From: a virus
Taxonomy: Duplodnaviria; Heunggongvirae; Uroviricota; Caudoviricetes
Virus record (IMG/VR): IMGVR_UViG_2703718834_000012
DNA length: 42,682 nt
Strand: one strand, 5' to 3'
Shown here: positions 2,796-42,682 of the stretch, piece after piece
Layout: every line of letters begins with the position of its first letter
Position numbering within the stretch: the stretch's first letter is position 1
The notes under the pieces: generated by a model
What the model was told of the DNA's origin: nothing
Seen by the model: the letters and a program-made list of their open reading frames with translations, nothing else
Databases searched by the model: none
Translations under genes and position numbers: made by a program

Positions 2796-3389
2796 TTATG
2801 AATAATTGAAAATGATGTTCAGATGGGATGGGGCAATTTTGTTGATTGAACACTCCAGTTGTTTATTGCCCCACGATGCGAGCGGATCTCCGCAGTAGGA
2901 CGCGCCAGCAAGCGAATACTTGATCGTTGTTTGTGGCGCATTTATCCGCCAGGTAAATGGCCACTCGTCACCGTTAAGCGCATCACCGCATACTGACATG
3001 CCACTCATAGCGGGCCGGAACTGTGTGATAGTGATGGTATAACCAAGAGCTGCAGCCACCCGGATGTAATAATCGCGGTTCAGGCCGCCGGTGCTGATTA
3101 ACTTTGCCACCACGGCGCGCTGGCGATCGCTGACGCCACCGGATTCACCAATCGCACAATCATCTGGTAACCCCAGAGAGCTTTCCCATTCTGACAACAT
3201 TACCGTCGCTGTAGGGGGAAAAGCACCAGTAATCAGGCTTTGCGCATCGTTGTCAGAACGCTGAAACGCGCTGCCCAGTGCCCGTAATACCGCAGCCTGT
3301 ACCGTTCTTTGCGACCGGGGCCACGCCCTGCCCGTCGGTAGCAGCGCACCAAGCGCACCGGCATAATCATTTTTTGAAAAGAGGCTCAT
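2796..3389 (-). CDS. Baseplate/tail protein, Mu gp48 / YmfQ (DUF2313)-like
   Basis: 197 aa; position between baseplate J-like gene and tail fibre; sequence resembles YmfQ-type proteins. Confidence 0.65.
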   Translation of the reverse strand: MSLFSKNDYAGALGALLPTGRAWPRSQRTVQAAVLRALGSAFQRSDNDAQSLITGAFPPTATVMLSEWESSLGLPDDCAIGESGGVSDRQRAVVAKLISTGGLNRDYYIRVAAALGYTITITQFRPAMSGMSVCGDALNGDEWPFTWRINAPQTTIKYSLAGASYCGDPLASWGNKQLECSINKIAPSHLNIIFNYS

Positions 3390-4528
3390 ACAAAATTCAC
3401 CCCGCCAAGCACCGGAATTTCGCCAACAGCAAAGGTGATATTGGCCGTCGGAGAGTTAAGAATATAGCCCGTCGTGCCGCTAACACCGCCGATACTCCCG
3501 TTAATATCAGAGAGGTAAACTTTCCCAGAACCATCAGGGTTAGCTTCATCAAAAAACAGCGCCGTCAGCGCGTCTTTTATCCCCTGAACTGTGGTGCTGT
3601 CGGCATTTTTGATCCCAGAGATTTCAATATTGATGACTTTCTTGATCGGGGAACATACGAAAACAATGGCAGTGTCTGTCTGCTGCGGATAGATGTGGTC
3701 GGCGACAGCGAGCTGGTCTCCGGTGGCTTTAACAGCCCCCCAGTCCTCAAGTTGGGATATTCCGTCGGTACCGACCGGAAACCCACCATTGTCATTCCGA
3801 TCACACATGATATACACGCCAACGGTCCCGGCCCCGTTCAGACGCCGCTTTACCCACGCGCGGGTGACGCCCGAAACCTCAAGCGCCCATTTTTTATAAT
3901 CGGCGTCGCTTCCACCCTGAGGCGGATTCTGCCATGCCAGCAAGCCACGACTGCGAAAATCCTCTTCCGTTTCAATATCGGCTCCGCCGGTCGCAGCGGA
4001 CAGTAACGTTACCTGTGGATCCACGCCAGCAATATTCGCGTCCAGGGTCATTATGGTCCCGGCATCAGCGTTACCGCGCGCGCCTCCACCCGTTACATCA
4101 CTGGTAATATCCGGCAGTATGGCCGTCACCGCGACGATACCAAATCCATCTGCCTGAATTTTAAGATCTGCATCCGTCCGGTACTGGTATCCGTCCCCGC
4201 GGTTAATGATCGAGCCAACAGGGATAATACAGTCAACACTGCCACTAGCCTGTACCGCAGGCGACTTCGCCGCTGCAGCTGGTTTTCTGAATACCTGCTT
4301 AAGGACCATCCACCCGGCGAGATACTCATCGGTAGAGGTAAACGGGTTTGTCTGCAGGGCAATATAGTCAAGGTAGGCGTAATGCAGATGCCCCATCCCC
4401 GCATCCATGTCAGCCAGTACCTTCAGGTTCGCGAAGCGCAGGAGCGCACCAACATCCTCAAGCTCCGCCTGCATAAATTTCCGGTTTCCGTCGCGGAGTT
4501 CGCTCAGCGTCGGTCGTTTAAACGGCAT
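3386..4528 (-). CDS. Baseplate J-like protein (Mu gp47-like)
   Basis: Trimmed to ATG 4526-4528 (MPFKRPTLSEL...) adjacent to upstream stop; size and position fit baseplate J. Confidence 0.7.
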   Translation of the reverse strand: MPFKRPTLSELRDGNRKFMQAELEDVGALLRFANLKVLADMDAGMGHLHYAYLDYIALQTNPFTSTDEYLAGWMVLKQVFRKPAAAAKSPAVQASGSVDCIIPVGSIINRGDGYQYRTDADLKIQADGFGIVAVTAILPDITSDVTGGGARGNADAGTIMTLDANIAGVDPQVTLLSAATGGADIETEEDFRSRGLLAWQNPPQGGSDADYKKWALEVSGVTRAWVKRRLNGAGTVGVYIMCDRNDNGGFPVGTDGISQLEDWGAVKATGDQLAVADHIYPQQTDTAIVFVCSPIKKVINIEISGIKNADSTTVQGIKDALTALFFDEANPDGSGKVYLSDINGSIGGVSGTTGYILNSPTANITFAVGEIPVLGGVNFV

Positions 4529-4529
4529 A

Positions 4530-4967
4530 TTAACGTTGCTCCCATATCCAGTAAAACCTGAATTCCTGCCAGTCCTTCCCCGGTGCCTGATAGCGGATAA
4601 TGAGATTGAGCCGGTCAGGCAGGACGATCCTTGCAACAGGAATAACCTCGCTGACAACGCCATCAACCTTTAACCAGTTGAGCGCTTCACTCGAGTATTC
4701 CTCCGCTTTTTTTGCTACATCCGGGGTCAGTTTTTTCCGCCGTAGCAGCCACAGCCGGGATCCCAGTTGGGATTCCTCCCCGGAATCCCCCCACCAGCCG
4801 CGGCGATCGCTATCCTCATAATCATCGTCAGCGCGCGCCAGCCTGTCGGTAAACAGGCTGTCCAGTATTGCAGTCTGTAAATCGTTCCCCGTGGTGAGTT
4901 CACCCAGCCCTTTCTGCCAGTCAGCAAACATCTCATCCACATTCCAGAATGAAGCGATGTCACTCAT
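4530..4967 (-). CDS. Baseplate protein (Mu gp46 / gpW-gp25-like)
   Basis: 145 aa; synteny within Mu-like baseplate block; start overlaps upstream gene. Confidence 0.6.
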   Translation of the reverse strand: MSDIASFWNVDEMFADWQKGLGELTTGNDLQTAILDSLFTDRLARADDDYEDSDRRGWWGDSGEESQLGSRLWLLRRKKLTPDVAKKAEEYSSEALNWLKVDGVVSEVIPVARIVLPDRLNLIIRYQAPGKDWQEFRFYWIWEQR

Positions 4968-5548
4968 GTCACCTGATCCTCTGTTTTTTGGCTGCGGATA
5001 TTGTCATTGCCACTCTGGGCATTTTTAACCACATGATCATGGTCATTATGTGCATCCCGCAGCTCTTTCAGTGTTCGGGTATTGGTTTCACAGTTATCAA
5101 CAATGTCACCCGTGCACCTCAGGATCGGGGTATTTGCAAGGATCCCCTGGCTGGCATTGATGGTCACGTTAGTGGCGTTATTGACCTCAACATTCTGGCC
5201 CTTTGCATCCAGGAAGATCCCCTTCTCCGTCAGGAGAATATTAAGGCCCCACTGGTTATACATGACCGTTTCGCCCGCTTTCAGGCCTGTATGACGGAAC
5301 CCCTGATGGTTGGACGCAATTACCACCGCGCTGGAACGATCACCGCCAATAAAAGCCAGAACCACGTCAGTCCCTGACGGCAGGCCGGATGAAAAGCCAA
5401 ATTCTGCCATCCGCGGAGCGCTGGCCACCTCCAGCGGAGTCTGGTACTGGATAGACTGCACCACCCCACCATCTTTCATAGCCGTGATCCGGCCAATCCC
5501 CAGCATGCCGGCGATCCTGGTCGCTGCATGTTTAAATAGTTGCTTCAT
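4964..5548 (-). CDS. Baseplate assembly/spike protein (Mu gp45-like)
   Basis: 194 aa; synteny; overlapping start/stop with neighbours. Confidence 0.6.
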   Translation of the reverse strand: MKQLFKHAATRIAGMLGIGRITAMKDGGVVQSIQYQTPLEVASAPRMAEFGFSSGLPSGTDVVLAFIGGDRSSAVVIASNHQGFRHTGLKAGETVMYNQWGLNILLTEKGIFLDAKGQNVEVNNATNVTINASQGILANTPILRCTGDIVDNCETNTRTLKELRDAHNDHDHVVKNAQSGNDNIRSQKTEDQVT

Positions 5549-6630
5549 GTATTGAATCCCGCCAGGTTCTGGTAGAAGGCATATGGCTGAACGGAGAATG
5601 CTTCAGGCGGCATCAGCGTCATGCGTGCATGGGTGCCGTAGTCATCGCGCATATAGGTGACTTCTGCCAGTAGCAATTCAGTCTTCGGCAACCGTAAGGT
5701 GGGAAGATCAACGGGGATCAATGTGTTTGGTTCCCACAGTTTCCCGTCTTTATCCCGCCAGGAATCGATGGTTACCGAGAGCTGTTTTGAACGTCCGTAC
5801 CGCCGGTTCATTTCCCAGTCGATCGCACTTTGTGCCTGTTGAGTAGCCATCAGGGTACTTTCCACAATCGATATATGTTTTCGGTACCGCATGCGGGCGG
5901 CCTCCGGATCTCTCGCCGTTGCCAGAGTCACAGCGTCATAGGCCGTATCAGGCGAATACCCTGCAATTGGAGAAACGCTCATTGATACACCGACATAATC
6001 TGAAAACCTGTCAGCCATCGATTTGCGGTAGTATGCCTGCTCGACATTTACCCCTTCGGCTATCCCACTTGCCGCACGACGTGTTCCCACCCGGGTCAGT
6101 AACAGGTTTCCATCGGGCTGATCGTAGTAAAGCAGAGCAGACCATCTGGCCACCCGATCGATGACTTCTTGCGGAGACTCACCCCAGTTCAGAGTGAACT
6201 GGGGTACCTTCACAAGTTCATCAACATCCGTGGTTACGGTGATGCCGTAGTAGGATGCCAGGCGAGAAGCAATTTCAAGCGCATTACTGGCATTGATGAC
6301 GTTGTTAGGCCACTCGGCTGAGCAATCCACCAGGTCCTGACATTTGCTCCTGCCCGTGGCGCGGACCTCATGGCGGGAGCGCGATAGTGCGGGTTCCCAG
6401 TCATCAACATATCCCGTCAGTGTCAGATCATCTCCGATACGAACTTCACAAGACATTCCCTCTTCAACGAGTTGACGATCTTCGTTGCCAGGGAAGTAAT
6501 CCATTAGCCCAAGATCGAAATCAGAGGGAAAACGCTCAATACCCCGCGTTACCCGGACAGAATCCCACCCCTCGATGATTTTGCCGTCGACCGTCAAAGA
6601 AACAACATCCAGATCGCTGTCTGCATTCAT
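5545..6630 (-). CDS. Tail/baseplate hub protein (Mu gp44 / P2 gpD-like)
   Basis: 361 aa; synteny downstream of DNA circulation protein. Confidence 0.6.
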   Translation of the reverse strand: MNADSDLDVVSLTVDGKIIEGWDSVRVTRGIERFPSDFDLGLMDYFPGNEDRQLVEEGMSCEVRIGDDLTLTGYVDDWEPALSRSRHEVRATGRSKCQDLVDCSAEWPNNVINASNALEIASRLASYYGITVTTDVDELVKVPQFTLNWGESPQEVIDRVARWSALLYYDQPDGNLLLTRVGTRRAASGIAEGVNVEQAYYRKSMADRFSDYVGVSMSVSPIAGYSPDTAYDAVTLATARDPEAARMRYRKHISIVESTLMATQQAQSAIDWEMNRRYGRSKQLSVTIDSWRDKDGKLWEPNTLIPVDLPTLRLPKTELLLAEVTYMRDDYGTHARMTLMPPEAFSVQPYAFYQNLAGFNT

Positions 6631-8033
6631 TGCCTCAGTACCTTCATGGTTGTCGGCATAAACGCCGGATGCGGTACGCGCGCTTCCTGTACCAGTTCAT
6701 CTGCACGGGTGGCATCCTGGTATAATCGGTTTGCCAGCGTCAGCGCCGGAAGCGGCTGAGCGGTAGTAACCTGCAGAAGCTCGCTCAGACCAGAAGCACG
6801 CTCACTCATCGTAGAAAGGAATGCCGATCTGACGGCGAGAAGCGCGTTATACATATCATCGTCCGCGCGGTCTCCAGCCAGAACCAGCGCCGTATCAAGT
6901 TGCACAGAAACTCGTTGAGTTAACTCTTCTGCCTCGTCTGTACTGGCTGGTCTGGAGTCCGCAGCGGCACTGGTCATGGCACCAGTACATAGCACAACAA
7001 TCAGCGTGTTCATGGTCGCCGAAATCGCTTTGCTGCTGTCGGACTGCTGGTACTCCGTGCTGATTGAATTAGCCAGTTTTTCCAGCGCTGTGATTCGGTC
7101 ATTAACGCTGCCGGCGCTGTTAAGAATTGCGTTTACCACGTCGGCGACGCCCTGGACAAACTCATCAGGTGTGTTGGAGCTGCTAAGCTGGCTCGACCTG
7201 TCGGTAACATTTTTCCGGTCCATTACCGACTGGGCTGTTACCTTGTCAGCCAGTGCTCTCTCATCATCCACATCAGCAACTGACGATTTGCCAGCAACAG
7301 CAGAGGAACTACCGCCCACAGAGCCTTTACTGTAACGTCCGTACCGGGTATTCCCGAACGTGGAGTTCAGGACATTGCTGAGATTCGTGACCTGACTGAT
7401 GGTGCTGTCAACCATGTTAGTCCAGAACGTGACCGTGCCTCTGATGGTGTTTATAGCCTGTGTGACACCGCGGATTTCACTCTTAACTCTGGCAATCGTG
7501 CTCAGCACAGCAGTGCTGACCAGTTTCAGATAGTTGGTTTTCACCGTGGCGCCTGCAACGGTACTGCCCGTGACAGCAAACACTTTAAGCCCTGATTCAA
7601 TTGCCATCAGGGTAAATTCAAATACTCGCCCGTTCTCCATCGAACCGGAAATACGCAAACCATTCTCAGGGATGGAAACCGTTAATTCGCCCAGTGTCGG
7701 ATGGACAAGCGTACCGCTACCTTTTTGTTCACAGGCTTCAATCAGTGACTGGCGCTGCGTGATAGCATCGCCGCCGCCGTAAACCTGGCTGTTCTGGATC
7801 AAGAAACCGCGAATAACAAATCGCCGTGTTGCCCGCCCGATATCCTCTATCCAGGCTGTATCACGGTAGGGATATTCATGTACCGCCTGGCGTCGGCCGT
7901 GGCTCCCTTCCTCAGCAACAATTGCAAATGGCACACCTCTGAATGAGCTGGGCCGTAACTGCCCCTGCCAGTCATCGCTGGTATCTCCCCCCAAAAGAGA
8001 AGTTATTGCGTCCTGGATAATTGACGGCATCAC
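6627..8033 (-). CDS. DNA circulation protein (Mu gp43/N-like)
   Basis: 468 aa with GGAGG RBS; position after tape measure gene in Mu-like order. Confidence 0.6.
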   Translation of the reverse strand: MMPSIIQDAITSLLGGDTSDDWQGQLRPSSFRGVPFAIVAEEGSHGRRQAVHEYPYRDTAWIEDIGRATRRFVIRGFLIQNSQVYGGGDAITQRQSLIEACEQKGSGTLVHPTLGELTVSIPENGLRISGSMENGRVFEFTLMAIESGLKVFAVTGSTVAGATVKTNYLKLVSTAVLSTIARVKSEIRGVTQAINTIRGTVTFWTNMVDSTISQVTNLSNVLNSTFGNTRYGRYSKGSVGGSSSAVAGKSSVADVDDERALADKVTAQSVMDRKNVTDRSSQLSSSNTPDEFVQGVADVVNAILNSAGSVNDRITALEKLANSISTEYQQSDSSKAISATMNTLIVVLCTGAMTSAAADSRPASTDEAEELTQRVSVQLDTALVLAGDRADDDMYNALLAVRSAFLSTMSERASGLSELLQVTTAQPLPALTLANRLYQDATRADELVQEARVPHPAFMPTTMKVLRQ

Positions 8034-8043
8034 GCCTCCGGAA

Positions 8044-8069
8044 ATAAAAAAACCGCCATGTCGGCGGTT
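8044..8069 (-). terminator. Intrinsic terminator-like hairpin inside tail operon
   Basis: Perfect 7-bp stem AACCGCC/GGCGGTT with a T7 run on the minus strand, immediately upstream of the gp43-like RBS. Confidence 0.5.
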
Positions 8070-8095
8070 TACATATGCACTGAAATGACTTATCT

Positions 8096-8342
8096 ATTTA
8101 TCGCTGGATCCATTACGGTCAAGAGATTCGGCGATCCTGTAAAGATGCTCAGTCGCCTTGAATGAGTTCATTAGGAACTCATAAAGCACACGTAAAAGCA
8201 ATGCACTTACCACCGATATCGTAATCGCCGTGAAATTCATTGAGACAACAGAAAAAACGAGGAAAATGCCAATTACCAGGTAAACAAGCGCAAAAACCTT
8301 TGGAGTCTAAATGGCTTTTGCTCCAAAAACTTTTTCATTCAT
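8096..8342 (-). pseudogene. Small two-TM membrane protein ORF interrupted by in-frame TAG
   Basis: ATG at 8340-8342 with strong AAGGAAGAAG RBS; 11 codons then TAG at 8307-8309; same frame continues 70 codons with two hydrophobic helices and an internal ATG at 8238-8240. Confidence 0.35.
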
Positions 8343-8373
8343 AACTTCTTCCTTAACGAAATGACGACAGTGA

Positions 8374-19001: not shown

Positions 19002-21131
19002 TTATTTCGGCAGGAGTTGCGATATTCGCTTACGTTTGACCGGCGCTGGTTCTTCAATAACCGCACCCGGCAGCTCGTAATTGATTTTTTCTTCCTGTCC
19101 AACTGGCGCTGGCAGGAACTTATCCGGATCGGCTTCGAGGTTGGCGGCCCGGACGTTGAGTTTTAACCCCATATGTTTGAGACCGCACAGCGCGGCATAG
19201 CTGTAAACGAGGCAGTCAAGCGCTTCGTTAGCTCGTCCTGGTATTGCTTCCCAGATACTGTACCGCTGCCCGGAAATGACTTTGTAAACCAGTCGCTCCG
19301 CCAGCAGCTGATTGAAGTACCCGAGATCGCGATCGTCAGGAAAATGCATATAACCCGCAGCGGCGGCGCCAGGTTTGGGTGGCTCAAGATGCAGGCGACC
19401 GCGTATCACGTCTTTCGCTGAGTTAACCCCCAGAATGACAGGGCGGAAACTGGCTTTGCTTTTCGATGATGGTCGTTTGGTCGGCCAGACAGGATTGCGT
19501 TTGCCTCCCTGTGCAGACTCCCCCTTAATTGCCCAGACACGACGGCCAAGACGCTCTTTGGCGAATTCGTATACCTTCTGCGTATGGTGGCCGCCGGAGT
19601 CCATGCACGTTGCCATGATATTCAGGCCGCGCCCGTCACCACGTCGCCAGATCTGTTTCAGGTATGCATCCAGTCGCTTCCAGGGTTCTTCCGTCTCAAG
19701 GTCACCATAAATAACGTCATGCGCGACCGACCACGATTCTTCATCTCTCCCCCAGCCGGTGATCGTAATTTCGAAGCGATCGTCCTGGGTATCAACTCCA
19801 GCTGTTAACAATGCCACCCCGTCCGGAACGACGGCCGGAAATATTTCCCGGCGCGCCAGCAGAACATCAACAGGGAGCTGTTTCCCATGATTAGGTCGGT
19901 GCGGAAGCCCCATCTGGGTATTCCACCACGCCTGTTCCTTATCCGGATCGCCCTTCGCATCGATATATTTTTTCGCAATATCCGACGGCTTATCTTTTTG
20001 CCAGGGGCTGAAAAGCTTGGATGCCTGGTACCCCGCGTGGTGGTTATCGACTGCCTCCTTTCCACAGGAGGGGCAGATTGCGCGATAGACCGCATGCCGT
20101 TCCGACTCTGACCATTGCCAGACCTTTTCAACGCTGCCCTCGTCTGCCGCCCGCCAGGCAAGGTCATAATCCATCAGCGGTGAGTGCCGCTCCCCGCAGC
20201 ACTCAAATGGGCGCGTCTGATGCCATCGAATAGTGTGCAGAGCTCTGAGGCGCTGTCCTTCGGACCAGCCACTACCACAGCATTCGCAATAGAGCATCGC
20301 CGATTTAGTCAGGTGTTTATCTCCCTCTTTCGGCCACTGAACGTGTTTGAAAAAGTCGGGGAACTGGCGGTGGCCACAGTGCGGGCAAACCACAGATGCC
20401 CGGCGCTGATCGGAGTCGGCGTAGCTGTCAGCAATGCGGCTCTCATCCTCCACCGTCGGCGAACAGGCGCGTACAGACAGCCAGGTCAGGCCAAATGTCG
20501 CTGTACGCTCTTCGGCCAGCGCAATTGGATCGCCTTCGCGGGTTATCGGGTACTTGTCCACTTCATCCGCCAGCAGGACACGAATCGGACGACGCGCAAG
20601 GTTATCAGGGCTACCAGCACCCGCCAGCGCCAGAAATCCGCCAGTGAATGCCTTGTAAAGAATGGTTTCTTTCGAGCTTTTCTGTTTCGAATCACCGATG
20701 ATTTTACGCAGTACCGGCGTCACCCTTACCAGCGGGCTAATACGCTCTTTCGAAAACTGTTCAGCGGCTTCTTCTTTCGGCTGCAGCAGCAGTATCGGAC
20801 AAGGATCGAGGTGGGCAAAATAGCCAAAAAGGTTTTCCAGCAGTGCTGTCTTCATCAACTGGGTACAGCACATTACAGTGATGATATGAACCCCGGACTC
20901 CGTCGCGGCAAGCATCGGTCCGCGGGCAATTTCTACCGTCGATGTTTCCCAGTTTCCCGAAGTGCTCCCAGCCTCTTTTGCCAGCTTACGATAGTCATCT
21001 GCCCACTGCGGCACACTGATACGCGGCGGGGGTGTCCAGCCTTTGCGGACGCTTAATTCAAGACGCTCAATCTTCTGCCGGGTTAAACTCTGGCTCTCCG
21101 AGGACTGAGATGTGTTTGTGGACATGTTCAA
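19002..21131 (-). CDS. Terminase large subunit (lambda gpA family)
   Basis: 709 aa; GWGRDEESW and NEALDCLVYSYAAL segments match lambda A; overlaps small subunit 3' end. Confidence 0.9.
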   Translation of the reverse strand: MNMSTNTSQSSESQSLTRQKIERLELSVRKGWTPPPRISVPQWADDYRKLAKEAGSTSGNWETSTVEIARGPMLAATESGVHIITVMCCTQLMKTALLENLFGYFAHLDPCPILLLQPKEEAAEQFSKERISPLVRVTPVLRKIIGDSKQKSSKETILYKAFTGGFLALAGAGSPDNLARRPIRVLLADEVDKYPITREGDPIALAEERTATFGLTWLSVRACSPTVEDESRIADSYADSDQRRASVVCPHCGHRQFPDFFKHVQWPKEGDKHLTKSAMLYCECCGSGWSEGQRLRALHTIRWHQTRPFECCGERHSPLMDYDLAWRAADEGSVEKVWQWSESERHAVYRAICPSCGKEAVDNHHAGYQASKLFSPWQKDKPSDIAKKYIDAKGDPDKEQAWWNTQMGLPHRPNHGKQLPVDVLLARREIFPAVVPDGVALLTAGVDTQDDRFEITITGWGRDEESWSVAHDVIYGDLETEEPWKRLDAYLKQIWRRGDGRGLNIMATCMDSGGHHTQKVYEFAKERLGRRVWAIKGESAQGGKRNPVWPTKRPSSKSKASFRPVILGVNSAKDVIRGRLHLEPPKPGAAAAGYMHFPDDRDLGYFNQLLAERLVYKVISGQRYSIWEAIPGRANEALDCLVYSYAALCGLKHMGLKLNVRAANLEADPDKFLPAPVGQEEKINYELPGAVIEEPAPVKRKRISQLLPK

Positions 21132-24394: not shown

Positions 24395-25447
24395 TTATTC
24401 CCCTGTTAACGCCCTTATTTCCTCCACCGTCTGGCTAAACCTGTCCTCCTCGAGTTCAACGCCGATAGCCTGGCGGCCAAGTTCCAGCGCGATTTTCACG
24501 GTCGAACCGGACCCCATAAAGAAATCAGCCACCACATCACCAGGCTTACTGCTGGCGTTGATGATCTGCCGCAACATGTCAGCGGGTTTTTCGCATGGGT
24601 GTTTACCTGGGTAAAACTGAACGGGTTTATGTGTCCAGACGTCGGTATAAGGAACGGATACGGAAACAGAGAAATGCCGCCGAAGCGATTTGTACTCTTC
24701 GAGCAGCTCTGAATACTTGCGATTTAACGAATGCCACATAGCCACCAGCTGGTGGTGTGGTGTTGCCAGTTCGCCGTTCTGGTGCTTTTCGATGGCTACC
24801 TGCGTGAAAAGGGACTGAAGATTCCGGTAGTCTAATTCATTCGGTAATTGCCACTGGCTACCGCTGAACCAGTGAGACACCATGTTCTTCTTTCCAGTCG
24901 CATCGGCTATTTGTTTTGAGGTTATGCCAAGCGCTTCACGTGCATCCCGGAAATAAGAAATTAGGGGAGTCATTACATGCTGCTTCAGCTCGCTTCCCTT
25001 CTCCGCGTAACCGTCGCTCTTTGGTTTATACGGCCCCTGGTAATGCTCAGCGAAGAGGATGCGCTCTGTTGCAGGGAAGTAAGAGCGCAGACTCTCTTTA
25101 TTACAGCCATTCCAGCGGCCCGACGGTTTAGCCCAGATGATGTGGTTCAGGACGTTGAACCGCTCACGCATCATGATCTCAATGTCTGCCGCCAGGCGGT
25201 GACCGGAGAAAAGATAAAGACTGCCAGCAGGTTTAAGCACTCGCCAGAATTGTGCGAGGCACATATCAAGCCAGCGAAGATAATCCTCATCCCCTTTCCA
25301 CTGATTGTCCCAGCCGTTGGGTTTCACTTTGAAGTACGGCGGATCCGTGACTATCAGGTCAATGGAGTTATCAGGGAGAGTGGCGATGTATTGCAGGCTA
25401 TCAGCGTTGACTAACTCGACACTGTTTATATTTACAGTATTTTTCAT
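24395..25447 (-). CDS. DNA methyltransferase, beta-class amino-MTase (N6-adenine or N4-cytosine)
   Basis: 350 aa; N-terminal catalytic DPPY motif (IVTDPPYF) and C-terminal SAM-binding FxGxG (DFFMGSGST). Confidence 0.85.
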   Translation of the reverse strand: MKNTVNINSVELVNADSLQYIATLPDNSIDLIVTDPPYFKVKPNGWDNQWKGDEDYLRWLDMCLAQFWRVLKPAGSLYLFSGHRLAADIEIMMRERFNVLNHIIWAKPSGRWNGCNKESLRSYFPATERILFAEHYQGPYKPKSDGYAEKGSELKQHVMTPLISYFRDAREALGITSKQIADATGKKNMVSHWFSGSQWQLPNELDYRNLQSLFTQVAIEKHQNGELATPHHQLVAMWHSLNRKYSELLEEYKSLRRHFSVSVSVPYTDVWTHKPVQFYPGKHPCEKPADMLRQIINASSKPGDVVADFFMGSGSTVKIALELGRQAIGVELEEDRFSQTVEEIRALTGE

Positions 25448-27226: not shown

Positions 27227-27255
27227 AATATATGCTAATTAGTTCATTTTTGCAA
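27227..27255 (-). promoter_or_regulatory. Candidate late promoter (pR'-like)
   Basis: Minus strand TTGCAA-N17-TATATT straddling the Q stop codon, about 40-50 nt upstream of the terminator. Confidence 0.3.
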
Positions 27256-27928
27256 TACCTTGCTGATAGTTTGCTGCCTTTTGTTGTGAACGTGATCGCG
27301 AAACATGAAGTAGCGCCTTGGAGTCGAGTCCCTTATACAGGCTGATAATTACATTGTAATGTTCCACGTAATTTTGAGACCAGTTTGTTTTGTTAACTCC
27401 CACCAGCGCAGCCAGATCACCATATTGATAGACATCACGCCCAGCCAATTCAGCCTTCACATCCTGTGCCGCCAGCCAGATAAGCTGTCGCAACCGTTCG
27501 ACGGTCTTCTTCGCCACCTTCCTCCCGGCCAGATGCTCGCAAAATTTCGACCACGCCCACTGAGTAATCAGCACCTGATTATCCCAACTCACATTCTCGC
27601 TATAGTTCCATAGCAACCAGGCCTTCTGGTGTTCTTCGAGCGTCATCAGTGCGCGGCGCCACGATGCCGTTGAATACTCAACCGGTTGCACCAAGGGAAT
27701 ATGCGAACCCTTGGTATGCGACTGTTTGCCGGGAATCGGTGGGTTATCAAGCGTAATCATTTTCCCGGTCACTTCATCCAATATTCGAGGCTTCTTACGT
27801 TTAAACGTTCCCGTATCAAACTGCGCGTTCTCAAGCCACGCCATCAACTGCCCTTTCGTCGCACCACTTAAATCGGCGGTAGCCACCATCAGCTGCTGGC
27901 GCACGTATTCGAGGAATTGAGTGTTCAT
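27239..27928 (-). CDS. Putative late-gene antiterminator (Q-like)
   Basis: 229 aa; sits between RusA and the late operon; recalled resemblance to Q-family antiterminators. Confidence 0.5.
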   Translation of the reverse strand: MNTQFLEYVRQQLMVATADLSGATKGQLMAWLENAQFDTGTFKRKKPRILDEVTGKMITLDNPPIPGKQSHTKGSHIPLVQPVEYSTASWRRALMTLEEHQKAWLLWNYSENVSWDNQVLITQWAWSKFCEHLAGRKVAKKTVERLRQLIWLAAQDVKAELAGRDVYQYGDLAALVGVNKTNWSQNYVEHYNVIISLYKGLDSKALLHVSRSRSQQKAANYQQGIAKMN

Positions 27929-36458: not shown

Positions 36459-39400
36459 ATGGAATTCTTTAATGTGGTTAAAGCCACTCAGAAATCCGGA
36501 AAGCAAGATGCAGTGGTCTGGTTCACTGCTAAAACCGAGGCTCGCGCCAATCTGATGCTGGATGTTGCGCTGGAAGATGCAGGTATCGAAACAGGTCGGG
36601 GTAAGGACTACGCCAAACCGATTCGCACTGATTTCCCAGTTGTCGACGGCCTGCCGAAAGAAGGTGAAGTTGATTTTACCTGGTGTGATCGCTACGAGCT
36701 TCAGGACGATGGGCGCACCTGGCTGCCAAAAGCCGCTGGTGTGTCTACTGGTTCCGTTTACGCCCCCTACACACCTACTCCGACCGTAATCGTTGAAGAT
36801 GCGACTGCGTCCGAAATTGTCCCGGTTGAAAACCGTACTCCAGCGGTCCGCTTTGCCGTCCATCTGATGAACGATAAATACCAAACCCACGTCACTAAAG
36901 AGCAGCAGTTGGCTGCCAGCGAAATGTCACTGGATGAAGGCAATACATATCTCCATAGCCTGCTTGTGGCAAGGAACGATGTGCCCGCGACCGCCAAACT
37001 CAGCCTGAATGCTGAGTGGAAAATGATTCGGGCGGTTAAGGACATTTTCACACCAGACGAAGAGCACGAACCAAGATTGATCGCTGCATTCATGTCTGAC
37101 TGGGTGAACACCGATGCCGGTGACCGCAATCAACTGGTAGAAGACTGGCGCAGTGGTAAGTTGCAGTTGCTCAAAACTGAAACCAGCAACGCTGCTGACG
37201 TTACAACGGGTCAAGATCTCACTGTTGAGGACGGTATCCAGACCGACGAGAACGGCCGGGCAGAAGGTGGCGTCGTTGATGGTGAAGTCGATACCGAAGA
37301 GCAATCCCAGCAGACACAGCAACCGAACCTGATCGTTGTTGCCACCCTGCCATTCCGCCAGCGCGTACTGGCTCAGTTCATCGGTGATGGTGAATATCTC
37401 TATCACATCGACGCAGGGCAGAAAAATGAGATTGTCCGCCTTGAGATGGACACCGATGACGCGTACGTCCAGAACCTGCTGCTGGCAGCTGAGAATGTGG
37501 AAGCATTCAAAAAAGCCATTGAGCACGATATTCATAAAGTCGTGAATGCCGTTAAGAAAGTCTTCCCTGTCGATGGAAAAATCCCTGAACTCGCAACCTT
37601 AATCCAGTTTTTGAAATTGTGGTTCGCTACAGATCACATCGACCGCGGTATCCTCGTTCGCGAATGGGCCGCCGGTAATCGCATCAGTAGTGTGCAGCGT
37701 ACTGATTCCGGCACTAATGCCGACGGCGGTTACGTCACTGACCGTGGACCTGACGCACACCACACACTGGACACTCTCGATTTAGAGATTGCGTGTGCCC
37801 TTCTGCCTATGGACTTCAACCACTTCGAGATCCCGGGCAGCATTCTTCGTCGCGCTAAAGAAATCGTGACCAAAAAAGAAGAACCATGGAAATCATGGAG
37901 CAACATCCTGCGCAATCAGCCAGGCGTTCTGGGTGTTAACCGCACGGCTATTTTTAACCTGGTACGTATCGCACCGGAAAATATTCATTTAACTCCTGTC
38001 GCTCACCTGGAATTTGTTAACCAGACCATGACAGCCGCGTTCAATTCCGCGGTCGAGTTATTGCCGTTGCATGAGGCTGAACCCGCAGCACAGGAAATTC
38101 CCCAACCTGAAGGTAAGGAGTCTCCGCGCAAATCCTTCTGCACTCACGAAGAGAACCTGCAACGCGTGCGTGAAGAAGGAGCACGCCGCCGCGCAGAGGA
38201 AGCGGCAGCACAACCGCAGAAAGTCGAACAAGAACTGGTTAAAAATGTCGGCAACGGAATATTCGACGTTACGGCTTTGCTGCAGAACTCAGCAACTCAT
38301 GGCACGAAAAAGGCTACGGAGACCACCAGCAATGTGCAGGTTCAAGAAACTGTCAGTGATGAAAAACAAGCTGGTGATGAAGTACAGCCAGGCGAAAGCA
38401 GTCTGGAGTCTGGTGAAGAGTCAGATACCAGCCAGAAGGACGATGTAAACCAGAATACGGATTCTGTCGCCAAAAATAGCGATTCTGTAAGCCAAACCGA
38501 ACCAGTTGCAGCACAAACCGAGCCAGAAGCGCAATCTGACGAACCAGCTGTTGTTTATCCCGCTTATTTCGAGCCAGGCCGCTATGAAGGGCTGCCAAAC
38601 GAGGTTTACCACGCCGCCAACGGCATCAGCTCAACCCAGGTGAAAGATGCGCGCGTTTCGCTGATGTACTTCAATGCGCGCCACGTAGAGAAAACCATCG
38701 TCAAAGAGCGCTCAGCGGTGCTGGACATGGGCAACTTGGTGCATGCGCTGGCGTTGCAGCCTGAACTACTGGACGCAGAATTCAGCGTTGAACCGGTGAT
38801 CCCTGAAGGCGCATTCACAACGGCCGCGACCCTGCGCGCCTTTATCGATGAGCACAATGCCAGCCTGCCGGCGCTGCTGTCTGCCGACGACATCAAGGTG
38901 TTACTGGAAGAGTACAACGCCACCCTGCCGCCGCAGGTTCCGCTTGGCGCTAACCTGGAAGAAACGGCACAGAACTATATGGCGCTGCCAGCTGACTTCC
39001 AGCGTATTGATGGTGACCAGAAGCAGACGGCGACGGCAATGAAGGCATGCATTAAAGAGTACAACGCCACCCTGCCGCCGCCGGTTAAAACCAGCGGCAG
39101 CCGTGACGCGCTGCTGGAGCAGTTGGCAATCATCAACCCTGACCTTGTGGCTCAGGAAGCACAGAAACCGGCACCACTGAAAGTGTCCGGTACCAAAGCA
39201 GACATGATCCAGGCCGTAAAGGCAGTCAAACCAGATGCCGTATTTGCCGACGAACTGCTGGATGCCTGGCGCGATAACCCGGAAGGAAAAGTGCTGGTCA
39301 CCCGCCAGCAGCTGAGCACCGCGCTGAATATTCAAAAAGCGCTTCTGGCACACCCGACCGCCGGCATGCTGCTGACCCACCCTAGCCGAGCCGTTGAGGT

Positions 39401-39848
39401 GAGCTACTTTGGTTTTGACGAGGAGACGGGCTTGGAAGTTCGTGTGCGCCCTGACCTTGAGATCGACCTGGATGGCGTGCGTATAGGTGCAGACCTGAAA
39501 ACCATCAGCATGTGGAATGTTAAGCAGGAAAGCCTGCGCGCCAGGCTACACCGGGAAATTATTGAACGTGATTATCACCTGAGCGCGGCTATGTACTGCG
39601 AAACCGCAGCGCTGGATCAGTTCTTCTGGATTTTCGTCAACAAAGACGAGAACTACCACTGGATCGCCATCATCGAGGCATCCGCTGAACTACTGGAGCT
39701 GGGTATGCTCGAGTACCGCAAAGCGATGCGCAATATCGCAACCGGATTCGACACAGGTGAATGGCCAGCGCCAATCACTGCTGACTACACCGACGAACTG
39801 AACGACTTCGACCTGCGCCGCCTTGAAGCGCTGCGTACTCAGGCATAA
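36459..39848 (+). CDS. recE: Exonuclease VIII, RecE-like
   Basis: 1129 aa; N-terminal segments (TDFPVVDGLPKEGEVDFTWCDRYEL, GNRISSVQRTDSGTNADGG) parallel Rac RecE; C-terminal PD-(D/E)xK-like core. Confidence 0.85.
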   Translation: MEFFNVVKATQKSGKQDAVVWFTAKTEARANLMLDVALEDAGIETGRGKDYAKPIRTDFPVVDGLPKEGEVDFTWCDRYELQDDGRTWLPKAAGVSTGSVYAPYTPTPTVIVEDATASEIVPVENRTPAVRFAVHLMNDKYQTHVTKEQQLAASEMSLDEGNTYLHSLLVARNDVPATAKLSLNAEWKMIRAVKDIFTPDEEHEPRLIAAFMSDWVNTDAGDRNQLVEDWRSGKLQLLKTETSNAADVTTGQDLTVEDGIQTDENGRAEGGVVDGEVDTEEQSQQTQQPNLIVVATLPFRQRVLAQFIGDGEYLYHIDAGQKNEIVRLEMDTDDAYVQNLLLAAENVEAFKKAIEHDIHKVVNAVKKVFPVDGKIPELATLIQFLKLWFATDHIDRGILVREWAAGNRISSVQRTDSGTNADGGYVTDRGPDAHHTLDTLDLEIACALLPMDFNHFEIPGSILRRAKEIVTKKEEPWKSWSNILRNQPGVLGVNRTAIFNLVRIAPENIHLTPVAHLEFVNQTMTAAFNSAVELLPLHEAEPAAQEIPQPEGKESPRKSFCTHEENLQRVREEGARRRAEEAAAQPQKVEQELVKNVGNGIFDVTALLQNSATHGTKKATETTSNVQVQETVSDEKQAGDEVQPGESSLESGEESDTSQKDDVNQNTDSVAKNSDSVSQTEPVAAQTEPEAQSDEPAVVYPAYFEPGRYEGLPNEVYHAANGISSTQVKDARVSLMYFNARHVEKTIVKERSAVLDMGNLVHALALQPELLDAEFSVEPVIPEGAFTTAATLRAFIDEHNASLPALLSADDIKVLLEEYNATLPPQVPLGANLEETAQNYMALPADFQRIDGDQKQTATAMKACIKEYNATLPPPVKTSGSRDALLEQLAIINPDLVAQEAQKPAPLKVSGTKADMIQAVKAVKPDAVFADELLDAWRDNPEGKVLVTRQQLSTALNIQKALLAHPTAGMLLTHPSRAVEVSYFGFDEETGLEVRVRPDLEIDLDGVRIGADLKTISMWNVKQESLRARLHREIIERDYHLSAAMYCETAALDQFFWIFVNKDENYHWIAIIEASAELLELGMLEYRKAMRNIATGFDTGEWPAPITADYTDELNDFDLRRLEALRTQA

Positions 39849-39853
39849 GGGGA

Positions 39854-40972
39854 ATGATGATGGAAAACACGAATATCGTAACCGCTGAACAGCAGACTCC
39901 AAACACGATCTCAGCCAGCAATGCCATTTTCAACGTGCAGGCTTTAACCCAGCTTCAGTCTGTCGCCGGGTTGATGGCACAGGCAGCCGTAACGGTGCCT
40001 GAGCACCTCCGCGGCAATCCGGCAGACTGCATGGCCATCATCATGCAGGCGATGCAGTGGGGTATGAACCCTTACGCCGTGGCGCAAAAGACGCACCTGG
40101 TTAACGGTGTCCTGGGATACGAAGCGCAACTGGTTAATGCGGTGATCTCCAGCTCAAACGCCATCGTTGGCCGCTTTCACTATGAGTACGAGGGCGACTG
40201 GTCGAAATGTGCCAGCAGCCGCGAGATAACCGTTAAAAAGCCTGCGAAAGGTGGCGGGACGTACGACAAGAAAGAAATGGTACGCGGTTGGGAAAGTGCT
40301 GATGAACAAGGACTGTCGGTACGGGTAGGTGCCGTTATTCGCGGTGAAAGTGATATCACCTGGGGAGAGCCTGTTTTCCTCTCCAGCGTAATCACACGTA
40401 ATTCTCCACTTTGGGTATCAAACCCGAAACAGCAGATCGCTTATCTGGCACTCAAATACTGGGCGCGCCTATATTGCCCTGCAGTTGTTCTTGGTGTGTA
40501 CACCCCTGATGAGATTGAACAGCGCACAGAAAAAGAGATCAACCCAACGCCGCAACGCGTTAGCCTGGCTGATATCTCAGGTGACACCGTCACAACCACG
40601 CAAAGCGCACAGGAATCGTCGGTAAATGTCGACTCTCTTGCCGATGATTTCCGCGAACGCATCGAATCTGCTCAGGACGTGGATAGCGCCAAATCGCTGC
40701 GTGCCGACATTGAAACGGCGAAAGCTACGCTGGGATCCGCACTATTCACCGAGCTGAAAAACAAAGCCGTAAAGCGTTATTACCTAGTGGATGCACGCAA
40801 CAAGGTTGAGGAGGCTATTAAATCCCTGCCCCAGCCCGACGAGCCGCATGCAGCCGAACGGTTCGCTGAAGCCGAGCGCATGCTTGCATCTTCAAAGCGT
40901 CACTTAGGCGATGAACTGCACGATCAATTCAGCATCACCCTGGCGGATATGAAACCGGAATACGTGGCCTGA
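39854..40972 (+). CDS. recT: RecT/Red-beta family single-strand annealing protein
   Basis: 372 aa immediately downstream of recE; triple ATG start; sequence of RecT type. Confidence 0.75.
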   Translation: MMMENTNIVTAEQQTPNTISASNAIFNVQALTQLQSVAGLMAQAAVTVPEHLRGNPADCMAIIMQAMQWGMNPYAVAQKTHLVNGVLGYEAQLVNAVISSSNAIVGRFHYEYEGDWSKCASSREITVKKPAKGGGTYDKKEMVRGWESADEQGLSVRVGAVIRGESDITWGEPVFLSSVITRNSPLWVSNPKQQIAYLALKYWARLYCPAVVLGVYTPDEIEQRTEKEINPTPQRVSLADISGDTVTTTQSAQESSVNVDSLADDFRERIESAQDVDSAKSLRADIETAKATLGSALFTELKNKAVKRYYLVDARNKVEEAIKSLPQPDEPHAAERFAEAERMLASSKRHLGDELHDQFSITLADMKPEYVA

Positions 40973-41294: not shown

Positions 41295-41492
41295 ATGGAT
41301 GATATTTTGGTAACGTCAGACCTGACCAGTCGCTACAAAATTTCACGCAAAACCCTTTGGTCATGGCAAAGTGCAGACACAATGCCTCGGGGCTTCGTAT
41401 GCCCGTTCCCACCCCCTGACTGGCCCGGCAACCCTAACCGCTGGCGCTCTGAGTCAATCAAAGAGTGGGAGGATAAAAAGAAGATAAATTAA
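41295..41492 (+). CDS. Excisionase / AlpA-like HTH regulator
   Basis: 65 aa from ATG 41295 with GGAGAGAG RBS; convergent with integrase, stop codons overlap (TTAA). Confidence 0.6.
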
Positions 41493-42682
41493 CTGAAGGG
41501 CTCTCCGATGATCTCTTCAAGATGGCTCTGCCAAACGCGGAGCCAGTGTTTCTGATCATCGATATAGTCATGAAGGTTGTAATGCGCCATAACCCCCACC
41601 ATCTGATGCCCGAGCAGCTTTTCAATTACGTGCGGCGGGCAACCTAACTCAGAGAGATTTGTGGCTATCGTCCGCCTCATATCATGAAGCGACCACTCTG
41701 CCATACCTGTTCCATTCCAAATAGAACGGGCGTAATTGGATGCCACAGGTGAATGAACGGGCGAATCTTTGATCCCGCCATCAATTTTACGTTGTGAAGT
41801 CACCAGGTGATTGGTGTTTATTTTCTTGAGGTGATTTCTGACCAGGTTAACGGCGGCGTCTGAGAGTCCCCTTCTAATATGTACCCGAGTTTTATAACTG
41901 CCCGCAGGCACGACCCACTCATTATCATCCAATCGAAACCATGATCTCTCACTAAGTCGAATCTCAGCCGTACGGCATCCGGTAAGCATAATAAATTTCA
42001 CCAGGAAAACGGACTCTATCGACATATGGCTTTTCAACCACTGATAGATTTTGCGCAGATCGTCATCGTCCATCCTGCGAGTTCTCTTTTTAGGCTTTTG
42101 CCCGACATCAGATGGCAGTAATCCCTCGAGTGGGTTTGAGGCGATCACACTTCTGTTAACGCAGAACCTAAACGCCCGTTTGCACAGCGAAAGCATGTAA
42201 TGAGCCATCACCCTGCTTTCTATAGAATCGAAGACGTTGATCCAGTGCATTTTCGCTGTGTTATCGACTTTGACATTCTTCATCGGTTCGGCGATATGTT
42301 TCTCAAACACCTGGCGATAGTAATCGACTTTAACTAGCCCGTTAGCGATACAGTGCCTTTCAATCCAGTAATTGAACGCTTCGGCAACGGACATCGCTTC
42401 CTGTCGGGTCTGCTTATCCAGCTTCACCTGCTCTCGCGGATCCAGTCCCTCAGTTAACCAGTTTCTGAATTGTTGGCGACGCTCTCTTGCCTGGGTGATA
42501 CTCATTGCAGGATAATCACCAACATTGAGTTTTACCGCTTTACCGGCCCAGCGATACCGATAGAAAAATGATATTTTTCCGGCCTGGCTGATTCTGGCGT
42601 TGAGCCCGTGCGAATCAGAAATAATCTCGATATCATCTCTTTTCTTGCCGAGCGCCTTCCTGAGCTTTGTGTCGGTGATCAT
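41489..42682 (-). CDS. int: Tyrosine integrase (P4-like, with N-terminal DUF4102-type arm domain)
   Basis: 397 aa; start ATG is the last codon of the window; C-terminal HDMRRT...LGH...HY catalytic signature. Confidence 0.9.

Follow-up and report, generated by a model that had tools for sequence, protein, structure and literature searches.

A DUF4282-like small membrane-protein gene, most likely a null allele, between the tape measure gene and its terminator in a lambdoid prophage

Lambda lom and bor and the cor genes of phi80 and N15 encode non-essential envelope proteins and are found in or beside the tail genes of Q-antiterminated late operons. Gp15 of phage HK97 is likewise dispensable for virion production. 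The HK97 gp15 moron encodes a YebO-like protein for superinfection exclusion (Cumby et al. 2012, as summarised in PMC3594210). The stretch of DNA analysed here (the window, 42,682 nucleotides) is a lambdoid E. coli prophage having a Q antiterminator, O, RecE/RecT, an integrase, a lambda-type terminase and a Mu-like contractile tail. Behind its tape measure protein (TMP) gene there is a gap, which we explain as follows. We think it probable, taking all parts of the account together, that the gap holds a genuine and dispensable gene for an inner-membrane hairpin protein of about 82 residues, that this gene closes the tape measure unit as its final cistron, and that it is null in this prophage by an amber codon. 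An unannotated gap of 340 bp is thereby explained as a nonsense allele, and its terminator is reassigned to the operon.

The gap behind the tape measure gene and its reading frame

The tail genes of the window region are all on the minus strand. An earlier note, made from the sequence of this DNA, had claimed a gap amid tail genes that otherwise abut or overlap, and this was borne out: 340 nt (8034–8373) separate the TMP gene from the DNA-circulation gene, whereas the remaining tail genes of the operon abut or overlap by 4 nt. The sole other "gap" in the operon, 141 nt at 10303–10443, is taken up by a -1 frameshift extension of the tail chaperone. The claimed AT-richness is also evident, since the GC fraction of the gap is 0.406 as compared with 0.489 in the 5' part of the TMP gene and 0.536 in the DNA-circulation gene. 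The reading frame is built as had been described, with a ribosome-binding site and an ATG (ATG1, only 31 nt past the TMP stop), 11 sense codons, a TAG, 70 further sense codons and a stop at 8096–8094, all on the minus strand. The features of the gap and its flanks are:

6627–8033, minus strand: gene for a DNA-circulation (Mu gp43/N-like) tail protein, the first gene past the terminator (RefSeq annotation; PF07157 in orthologous loci)
8094–8342, minus strand: small membrane-protein gene, DUF4282-like / PHROG 12129, 82 codons if intact and broken at codon 12 (translation, same-position intact orthologues, PHROG 12129, HMM and hhalign)
8238–8240, minus strand: internal ATG (Met35) without a Shine-Dalgarno sequence, the start of a 48-aa remnant annotated by gene callers (P0011, 48 aa, called on 16 contigs)
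8292–8296, minus strand: run of five T (T5); copies of the Enterobacter cloacae type have a sixth T, which connects ATG2 with the main frame and skips the amber codon (alignment of L011–L014 and L048 with the window)
8307–8309, minus strand: amber TAG, codon 12, derived from TGG (Trp) according to the DNA alignment
8336–8338, minus strand: ATG2, overlapping ATG1 (ATGAATG) in the +1 frame, where translation of the repaired T6 allele P0006 begins
8345–8354, minus strand: Shine-Dalgarno-like AAGGAAGAAG, 7 nt 5' of ATG1 (8342–8340), by direct reading
8374–10302, minus strand: TMP gene with an embedded lytic (endolysin/transglycosylase-like) domain, aa 393–541 (PHROG 2276, E=3e-152; PHROGs 873 and 7182)

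Among 5426 complete E. coli genomes, 22 contain the 601-nt region, and in 14 of these it is identical to the window. A search of species-representative genomes returned a single locus, in Citrobacter youngae, and a DNA search of a phage collection with the same region gave no match. The copy in NCTC9040 differs by one base, has TAT as codon 12 and is annotated in RefSeq as an intact protein of 82 aa (WP_023157309.1). Protein searches recovered a small family of 79–83 aa from prophages of Enterobacter, E. coli and Citrobacter, and each member examined is located between the TMP and DNA-circulation genes of a similar Mu-like tail module. The comparison with related prophages proposed in the earlier note thus yielded intact versions in the same slot in all three genera. 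Conservation of the protein at this position reaches down to 33% identity, and the family is under purifying selection: a close pair has a dN/dS of 0.29, and in distant pairs, with a dN of about 0.34, dS has reached saturation. Three fragmentary "homologues" (P0015, P0016 and P0037) were left out, as their frame changes are in homopolymer runs and look like read errors.

Two readings would leave no gene at all, one being a frame that is open by chance in a spacer without coding function and variable in sequence, and the other a TAG introduced by assembly error. RefSeq has no annotation of the region in genomes with the amber allele, which is what the first of these would expect. Related phages do not, however, show a variable non-coding gap devoid of a conserved peptide; the peptide is conserved at the same position to the identity given above, dN/dS is well under 1, and profile matches have E values of 1e-16 to 1e-22. 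As for the second, the TAG is not a sequencing error, because it is present in 29 independent assemblies. The conservation data already refute the absence of a gene, to which we assign practically no chance, and the comparisons indicate that the gap holds a real small membrane-protein gene.

The window protein matches PHROG 12129 with E=6e-11 and scores 22.1 bits against Pfam DUF4282 (PF14110), which is below the gathering score of 27. Comparison by hhalign of the window subfamily with the wider phage family gave 99.5% probability (E=3e-22), and the HMM of the wider family matches only the small ORF in the window (E=2.7e-16). A protein search of the phage collection produced a single match with 33% identity, gp19 of Edwardsiella phage GF-2 (YP_009126622), which passes the DUF4282 gathering score (31.9 vs 27). 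By these sequence comparisons the window protein appears to be a divergent phage-branch member of DUF4282 / PHROG 12129, and the gene adds a member to this catalogued, uncharacterised family; a search of a literature library found no paper mentioning DUF4282 or PF14110. Only 24 clusters were recovered by an exhaustive profile search of 1.8 billion representatives, and they have the signature F-x-x-L-I-T-P-K ... R-x-x-F-E ... F-K-N-N-E-Y-L-R-R-I-A-E. The traits of the family, as judged from alignments, AlphaFold and hydropathy, are all found in the window protein: about 80 aa, two transmembrane helices, an N-terminal ..TPK.. and a C-terminal R..E...FK..E.L.RIAE.

The two hydrophobic helices claimed earlier are supported by hydropathy, with membrane spans at about 16–34 and 37–58 and a connecting loop of 2–3 residues, in agreement with the helical hairpin (H3–34/H37–76, pLDDT 81) modeled by AlphaFold. 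Foldseek found no viral structure at E<=0.001, the helical hairpin being too simple to discriminate. Both termini are predicted to be cytoplasmic (N-in/C-in) by the positive-inside rule from K4, K9 and K15. The conserved motifs, an N-terminal FGxKxIWTPK and a juxtamembrane LRVLYEFLMxSFKxTEHLYRIAE, are therefore on the predicted cytoplasmic side, and conservation is highest in the N-terminal motif and the juxtamembrane C-terminal helix rather than in the membrane spans.

A small hydrophobic protein with two helices could also be a membrane toxin, a holin-like lysis modulator or part of a type I toxin-antitoxin system with an antisense RNA. The frequent inactivation described below could reflect toxicity, and there is a weak promoter-like site on the opposite strand (8240–8267). 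That site matches in 9 of 12 positions and such sites are not above chance in number, and an Rfam scan of 7800–8600 gave sub-threshold chance matches only. The search against small toxin and holin-like families that had been recommended came back empty, with no family match in Pfam, PHROGs, NCBIfam or PADLOC (the last two gave no match of any kind with the protein). The gene is in a tail operon, not in a lysis cassette, and conservation peaks in the soluble-face motifs instead of the membrane helices. A toxin or holin is for these reasons a very improbable explanation.

Alleles of codon 12

Four alleles were distinguished among the 46 copies in which codon 12 was read. TAG with T5 is present in 29 copies, including the window, E. 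coli and the Citrobacter youngae type strain. TGG is present in eight (L005–L010, L019 and L035), several of which are Enterobacter assemblies; TAG with T6 in five, with two Enterobacter cloacae assemblies and gut metagenomes among them; and TAT in four (NCTC9040 and three other genomes, L020–L022). TAG is thus the commonest allele in this sample, and it is carried by 21 of the 22 complete E. coli genomes having the region. In deeper relatives the residue at codon 12 is Trp (P0008, P0009, P0013 and P0014) or Leu (CTA/TTG). The earlier suspicion of decay agrees with this distribution, as relatives have TGG where the window has TAG, and the window allele is a nonsense mutation by a single G>A change.

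Two marker bases are common to the TAG, TAT and TAG with T6 alleles and differ from the TGG allele, so these three constitute one derived lineage. The simplest history would be a change of TGG to TAG followed by two independent repairs. In one, TAG became TAT, with Tyr as an aromatic substitute for Trp; in the other, a single added base (T5 to T6) joined ATG2 to the main frame and gave a protein of 81 aa with a new N-terminus of 15 residues (P0006, 19 contigs). Amber copies are found behind TMP genes that are 85–100% identical to that of the window, whereas their small, DNA-circulation and baseplate genes are at least 99% identical; the amber allele has therefore moved with the conserved downstream block through TMP mosaicism.

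Among the 29 amber copies, 4 non-synonymous changes, including a stop-loss, and 0 synonymous changes were counted in the small ORF, compared with 17 synonymous and 10 non-synonymous changes in the adjacent gene of the same copies (Fisher p=0.03). This pattern fits relaxed constraint or loss of function. The ORF 3' of the TAG is intact in 28 of the 29 copies and has lost its stop codon in one. In the window the gene is most probably null. The amber majority together with the two repairs could mean that the gene still matters, or that there is residual expression.

Expression of the amber copy from the internal ATG or by read-through, as had been envisaged in the earlier note, did not find support. 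Met35 lacks a Shine-Dalgarno sequence, and a product begun there would miss the conserved N-terminal motif and helix 1; a tRNA scan of the window detected no suppressor tRNA; and the substitutions in amber copies are all non-synonymous. The ATG2 frame in the window stops after 21 codons, and a return to the main frame would require a -1 slip at the T5 run, where the heptamer G_TTT_TTG is imperfect and differs from the canonical X_XXY_YYZ in having G, not T, at position 1. Predicted folding of the mRNA by the amber codon and the T-run is not better than that of shuffles (z=0.55). Programmed recoding was rejected, since the TAG is confined to one sublineage with sense codons in its relatives, the heptamer is non-canonical and no significant structure is present. 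A 14-nt inverted repeat near the amber codon is a by-product of a repeated K-V-F coding motif.

A less demanding form of the same idea is that the amber allele is a purposely retained hypomorph, with protein made at a low level by read-through at UAG-A, by re-initiation at Met35, or from ATG2 with a -1 slip on G_UUU_UUG, the last of which would yield the same protein as the T6 allele. The predominance of the amber (29 of 46) over E. coli, Citrobacter and, in repaired form, Enterobacter and over diverse TMP backgrounds is in its favor. ATG2 must be usable, because the T6 allele depends on it, and the chaperone gene of the same operon uses a perfect T_TTT_TTG as its -1 site. The intact ORF past the TAG would also count for it, but diversity in the flanks of the amber copies is just ~0.1–0.6%, which is too little time for decay and makes the intactness uninformative. 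Moreover, the stop codon is not conserved, relatives having TGG and deeper ones codons for Leu, and the imperfect heptamer without a stimulatory structure, the lack of a suppressor tRNA in the window, the shortcomings of Met35 and the exclusively non-synonymous substitutions also argue against it. We consider a hypomorph improbable and retain a null allele as the preferred reading. The series of TGG, TAG, TAT and TAG with T6 alleles is a natural experiment on whether the protein is a benefit or a cost to the lysogen.

Terminator, borders and genomic neighborhood

The following features bear on how the gene is delimited and transcribed:

8043–8070, minus strand: intrinsic-terminator-like hairpin AAACCGCC-GACAT-GGCGGTTT with a stem of 8–9 bp and a T-run, dG -12.2 kcal/mol, also present in relatives without the insert
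8070–8653, minus strand: AT-rich mosaic segment comprising the C-terminal ~93 codons of TMP, the small gene and the spacer, which diverges from the AW1.7-type prophage between flanks 90–95% identical
8082–8089, minus strand: 8-nt direct repeat GTCATTTC (minus strand), right copy (repeat search, spacing 276)
8358–8365, minus strand: 8-nt direct repeat, left copy (repeat search)
8416–8444, minus strand: candidate sigma-70 promoter-like site ATGATA-17-TATAAT (10/12) inside the 3' end of the TMP gene, kept in L003 and absent in L015

The hairpin and T-run claimed at the end of the ORF are present (8070–8043, with the stability listed above). They had been taken as the insert's own terminator, and this part of the claim fails, because the same hairpin and T-run follow the TMP stop in relatives that have no insert. 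One of these is a prophage of E. coli AW1.7, where the flanks are 90% and 95% identical and the gene is absent; similarity to the window breaks at 8654 and resumes at 8069, and the hairpin with its T-run is identical. The other two are the nearest cultured phages, Citrobacter phage phiNP (DNA-circulation protein 68% identical) and Serratia phage vB_SspM_BZS1 (BZS1), in which a gap of 33–36 nt consists of such a hairpin. Over all three insert-less junctions the gap is 33–68 nt. In the Citrobacter L015 lineage and in L050 the hairpin is kept with compensatory changes in the stem. The terminator therefore belongs to the TMP/DNA-circulation junction rather than to the insert. The hairpin is ancestral to this junction, and the gene either entered the space behind the TMP stop, ahead of the terminator, or was lost from it.

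The small-gene unit is 276 bp between the 8-nt direct repeats, and AW1.7 has one related copy of the repeat at its empty junction. An 8-mer repeat may arise by chance; its placement at both borders of the unit is suggestive. The insert extent given earlier was correct as to the AT-rich gap and too narrow as to the divergent AT-rich segment, which is 8070–8653 and continues ~280 nt into the 3' end of the TMP gene. In this part of the TMP the last ~90–93 codons of the window and AW1.7 are homologous yet only ~40% identical, and a third variant of the C-terminus (MLI104K1 type) is followed by the same small gene. The TMP C-terminus is independently hypervariable. Co-evolution of the small gene with the TMP C-terminus was rejected, as identical small genes are found behind C-termini differing by at least 16%, and this lack of co-variation argues against a lock-and-key pair.

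Sigma-70-like sites are not more numerous than in shuffled sequence. A promoter-like site is located 5' of the small gene in 9 of 28 lineages, where composition alone predicts 4.7; the apparent enrichment over upstream control windows (12 of 252, p=4e-5) mostly disappears after control for composition and was not accepted. The proposal that the locus is a moron therefore stands in part. Extra DNA absent from close relatives (AW1.7, phiNP and BZS1) and bordered by direct repeats is indeed present, and so is a deviant base composition, in a low-GC zone that also spans the last ~280 nt of the TMP gene. The terminator, however, is not the gene's own, and a promoter of its own is unproven, the site at 8444–8416 being not above chance and absent in the Citrobacter lineage. 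A classical autonomous moron is not supported, as the gene starts 31 nt from the TMP stop and has no above-chance promoter. The slot that follows the TMP stop and precedes the terminator is an insertion site for cargo, and another lineage has an extra orphan gene of 194 aa there.

A scan of viral contigs gave 80 loci of the wider family, of which two without a scoring motif were dropped. In 42 of the remaining 78 the gene starts at most 85 nt from the end of an ORF of 579–1136 codons, and seven such ORFs were tested, each of which matched a PHROG of tape measure or lytic tail proteins. These matches fall into at least four families (PHROGs 3336, 1538/1107, 2013 and 2276), and gp18 of GF-2 is likewise annotated as a tape-measure-like "lytic tail protein". 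A hairpin with a T-run is found within 110 nt 3' of the gene in all 78 loci. The other 36 do not adjoin a tape measure gene. Many are in the baseplate cluster, and most of the 36 have the baseplate hub (PHROG 196) on one side and a Mu gp45-like spike on the other, some with an extra secreted protein of 111 aa; the assignment of the spike is a reading of its sequence, for which the PHROG search gave no match. Random insertion is not supported, because the wider family is habitually placed directly behind tape measure genes. The gene is cargo that markedly prefers the 3' end of the transcription unit to which the tape measure gene belongs. In GF-2, L114 and L124 it abuts or overlaps the tape measure stop, which suggests late, translationally coupled rather than lysogenic expression. 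The position of DUF4282 / PHROG 12129 genes in phages, behind the tape measure gene and before the terminator, is a rule that offers a testable handle on function.

Possible function and comparison with known systems

We propose that the gene, in a 276-bp unit that follows the TMP stop and precedes the intrinsic terminator usual behind TMP genes, is the final cistron of the sheath-tube-chaperone-tape measure unit. On the lambda paradigm, polymerase modified by Q would read through the hairpin in lytic growth, and in the lysogen the hairpin would end any transcript begun nearby. Termination in the lysogen and Q-dependent read-through in lytic growth is an architecture that morons exploit (PMC3594210). 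The phage does not need the gene: phages without it are viable (phiNP and BZS1), and the amber allele has spread in both E. coli and Citrobacter and, once repaired, in Enterobacter as well. The product is most likely a non-essential inner-membrane protein, tied, to judge by its position and predicted fold, to the tape measure or to the passage of DNA at the cytoplasmic membrane.

What such a protein might do can be narrowed only tentatively. By analogy with HK97 gp15, our leading single guess is exclusion of DNA injection by incoming phages, a possibility that we hold with low confidence. Three observations speak against it. The conserved motifs are predicted to be cytoplasmic with only ~2–3 residues in the periplasm, which would be unexpected for a protein that blocks an incoming tail; in some lineages the gene appears to be translationally coupled to the TMP gene; and there is no co-variation between the small gene and the C-terminus of the TMP.

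The gene could alternatively encode a late helper or "immunity" protein for the phage's own tape measure or tail, which keeps the hydrophobic TMP out of the membrane of the producing cell or tethers tail assembly to the membrane. Such a role would suit a gene that comes right behind the tape measure gene in at least four families of the latter, in some cases touching its stop codon, and always before the terminator of the unit, as would conserved motifs on the predicted cytoplasmic face, where tails assemble, and the lack of a convincing promoter of its own. It would be surprising, however, for a helper of this kind to be dispensable, as the viability of phiNP and BZS1 without the gene implies, for its null allele to spread between genera, for 36 of 78 loci to be away from the tape measure gene, many between baseplate hub and spike, and for co-variation with the TMP C-terminus to be missing. 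We regard this alternative as rather unlikely.

In a broader and equally doubtful proposal, DUF4282-like proteins would be widespread membrane factors coupled to tape measures, encoded by the closing cistron ahead of the terminator in tape measure units of at least four unrelated families, and might constitute a new injection-blocking or "tape measure immunity" family. If this were true, the dominance of the amber allele in E. coli and its two repairs would reflect on/off selection. Returning to the preferred reading, a dispensable inner-membrane protein with a null allele in the window, the locus may be set beside the systems named at the outset and its closest relatives.

The comparison with lambda lom/bor and phi80/N15 cor rests partly on PMC3594210. 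Those products are outer-membrane proteins or lipoproteins with documented expression in the lysogen and documented phenotypes, whereas the window protein is predicted to be a hairpin in the cytoplasmic membrane. HK97 gp15 is closer, in that both are small inner-membrane proteins (predicted here) encoded by deviant-GC add-ons in the tail operon by the tape measure gene (PMC3594210). The HK97 gene, however, precedes the tape measure gene and is served by a promoter and a terminator of its own, while the window gene is downstream of the tape measure gene, with an unproven promoter and a shared terminator. Homology with YebO/gp15 was not detected in Pfam, where there was no YebO-family match at E<=10, or in PADLOC.

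The phages phiNP and BZS1 and the AW1.7 prophage have the same Mu-like tail order (sheath, tube, chaperone, tape measure, DNA circulation, baseplate) and the same hairpin. Unlike the window they have no small gene in their gap of 33–68 nt, and the C-terminal ~90 aa of the AW1.7 TMP are ~40% identical to those of the window. The closest counterpart of the protein is GF-2 gp19, with 80 aa, two membrane helices, 33% identity and the TPK and R..E..FK..EYL.RIAE motifs. Its gene abuts that of the tape-measure-like "lytic tail protein", and behind it come a hairpin and a T-run. It differs from the window gene in being an intact copy and in its DUF4282 score, 31.9 as compared with 22.1 for the window protein, on either side of the gathering score of 27.

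The tape measure gene and the cargo slot behind it

The tape measure protein, encoded on the minus strand at 8374-10302, carries an embedded lytic domain (aa 393-541) that matches the PHROG 873 endolysin (E=2e-39) and also PHROG 7182, a tail injection transglycosylase; a Pfam search returned no domain anywhere in the protein. Its C-terminal ~90 residues (window 8374-8653, minus strand) occur in at least three variants that are 40-85% identical, in prophages that are otherwise 90-100% identical, and the variant type is independent of the presence of the small membrane-protein gene downstream. This end of the protein is a recombination hot spot.

The slot that follows the tape measure stop, ahead of the terminator, acts as an insertion site for cargo. 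One viral contig, L050, has an extra 194-aa ORF there (3344-3928), upstream of the small gene, for which neither Pfam nor PHROG searches gave a match. The small-gene region matches at two places in NZ_LR134247.1 (E. coli NCTC9040). The variant protein of this strain, P0007, has Tyr12 and an internal double frameshift, and in the copy read the tape measure gene is broken into two CDSs; long-read indel errors or genuine decay may explain both the frameshifts and the split.

The start of the small ORF (window 8292-8334) is spanned by two repeats, one inverted and imperfect (14 nt), the other direct (11 nt), which arise because a K-V-F coding motif (AAAGTTTTT) is repeated. The mRNA fold predicted for this interval was no better than that of shuffled sequence.

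A second context of DUF4282-like genes

DUF4282-like genes were also found in a second context, around 4500-5300, in the viral contig loci L058 and L060 and in about 30 IMG/VR loci like them. They are flanked on one side by the baseplate hub (PHROG 196) and on the other by a spike-like protein, which had no match in the PHROG search and whose sequence reads like a Mu gp45-type spike. Some of these loci additionally encode a protein of 111 aa with a signal peptide, which belongs to PHROG 3443 (unknown function), and all are followed by a hairpin and T-run.

The tail assembly chaperone and the prophage backbone

Six codons ahead of its stop, the tail assembly chaperone gene contains a perfect -1 slippery heptamer, T_TTT_TTG, and an ORF in the -1 frame continues as far as a TAA overlapping the ATG of the tape measure gene:

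10444-10722, tail assembly chaperone gene
10459-10465, minus strand, slippery heptamer
10295-10429, minus strand, -1 frame extension ORF

Together they constitute the classic programmed frameshift of the chaperone G/GT type, and its extension accounts for the second apparent gap in the tail operon (141 nt, 10303-10443).

The part of the window from 19002 to 42682 encodes the following:

41489-42682, integrase
39854-40972, RecT
36459-39848, RecE/exonuclease VIII-like protein, 1129 aa
31812-32753, replication protein O
27239-27928, antiterminator Q
24395-25447, DNA methylase
19002-21131, lambda gpA-type terminase

The backbone at 19002-42682 is lambdoid, and it is joined to a Mu-like contractile tail.
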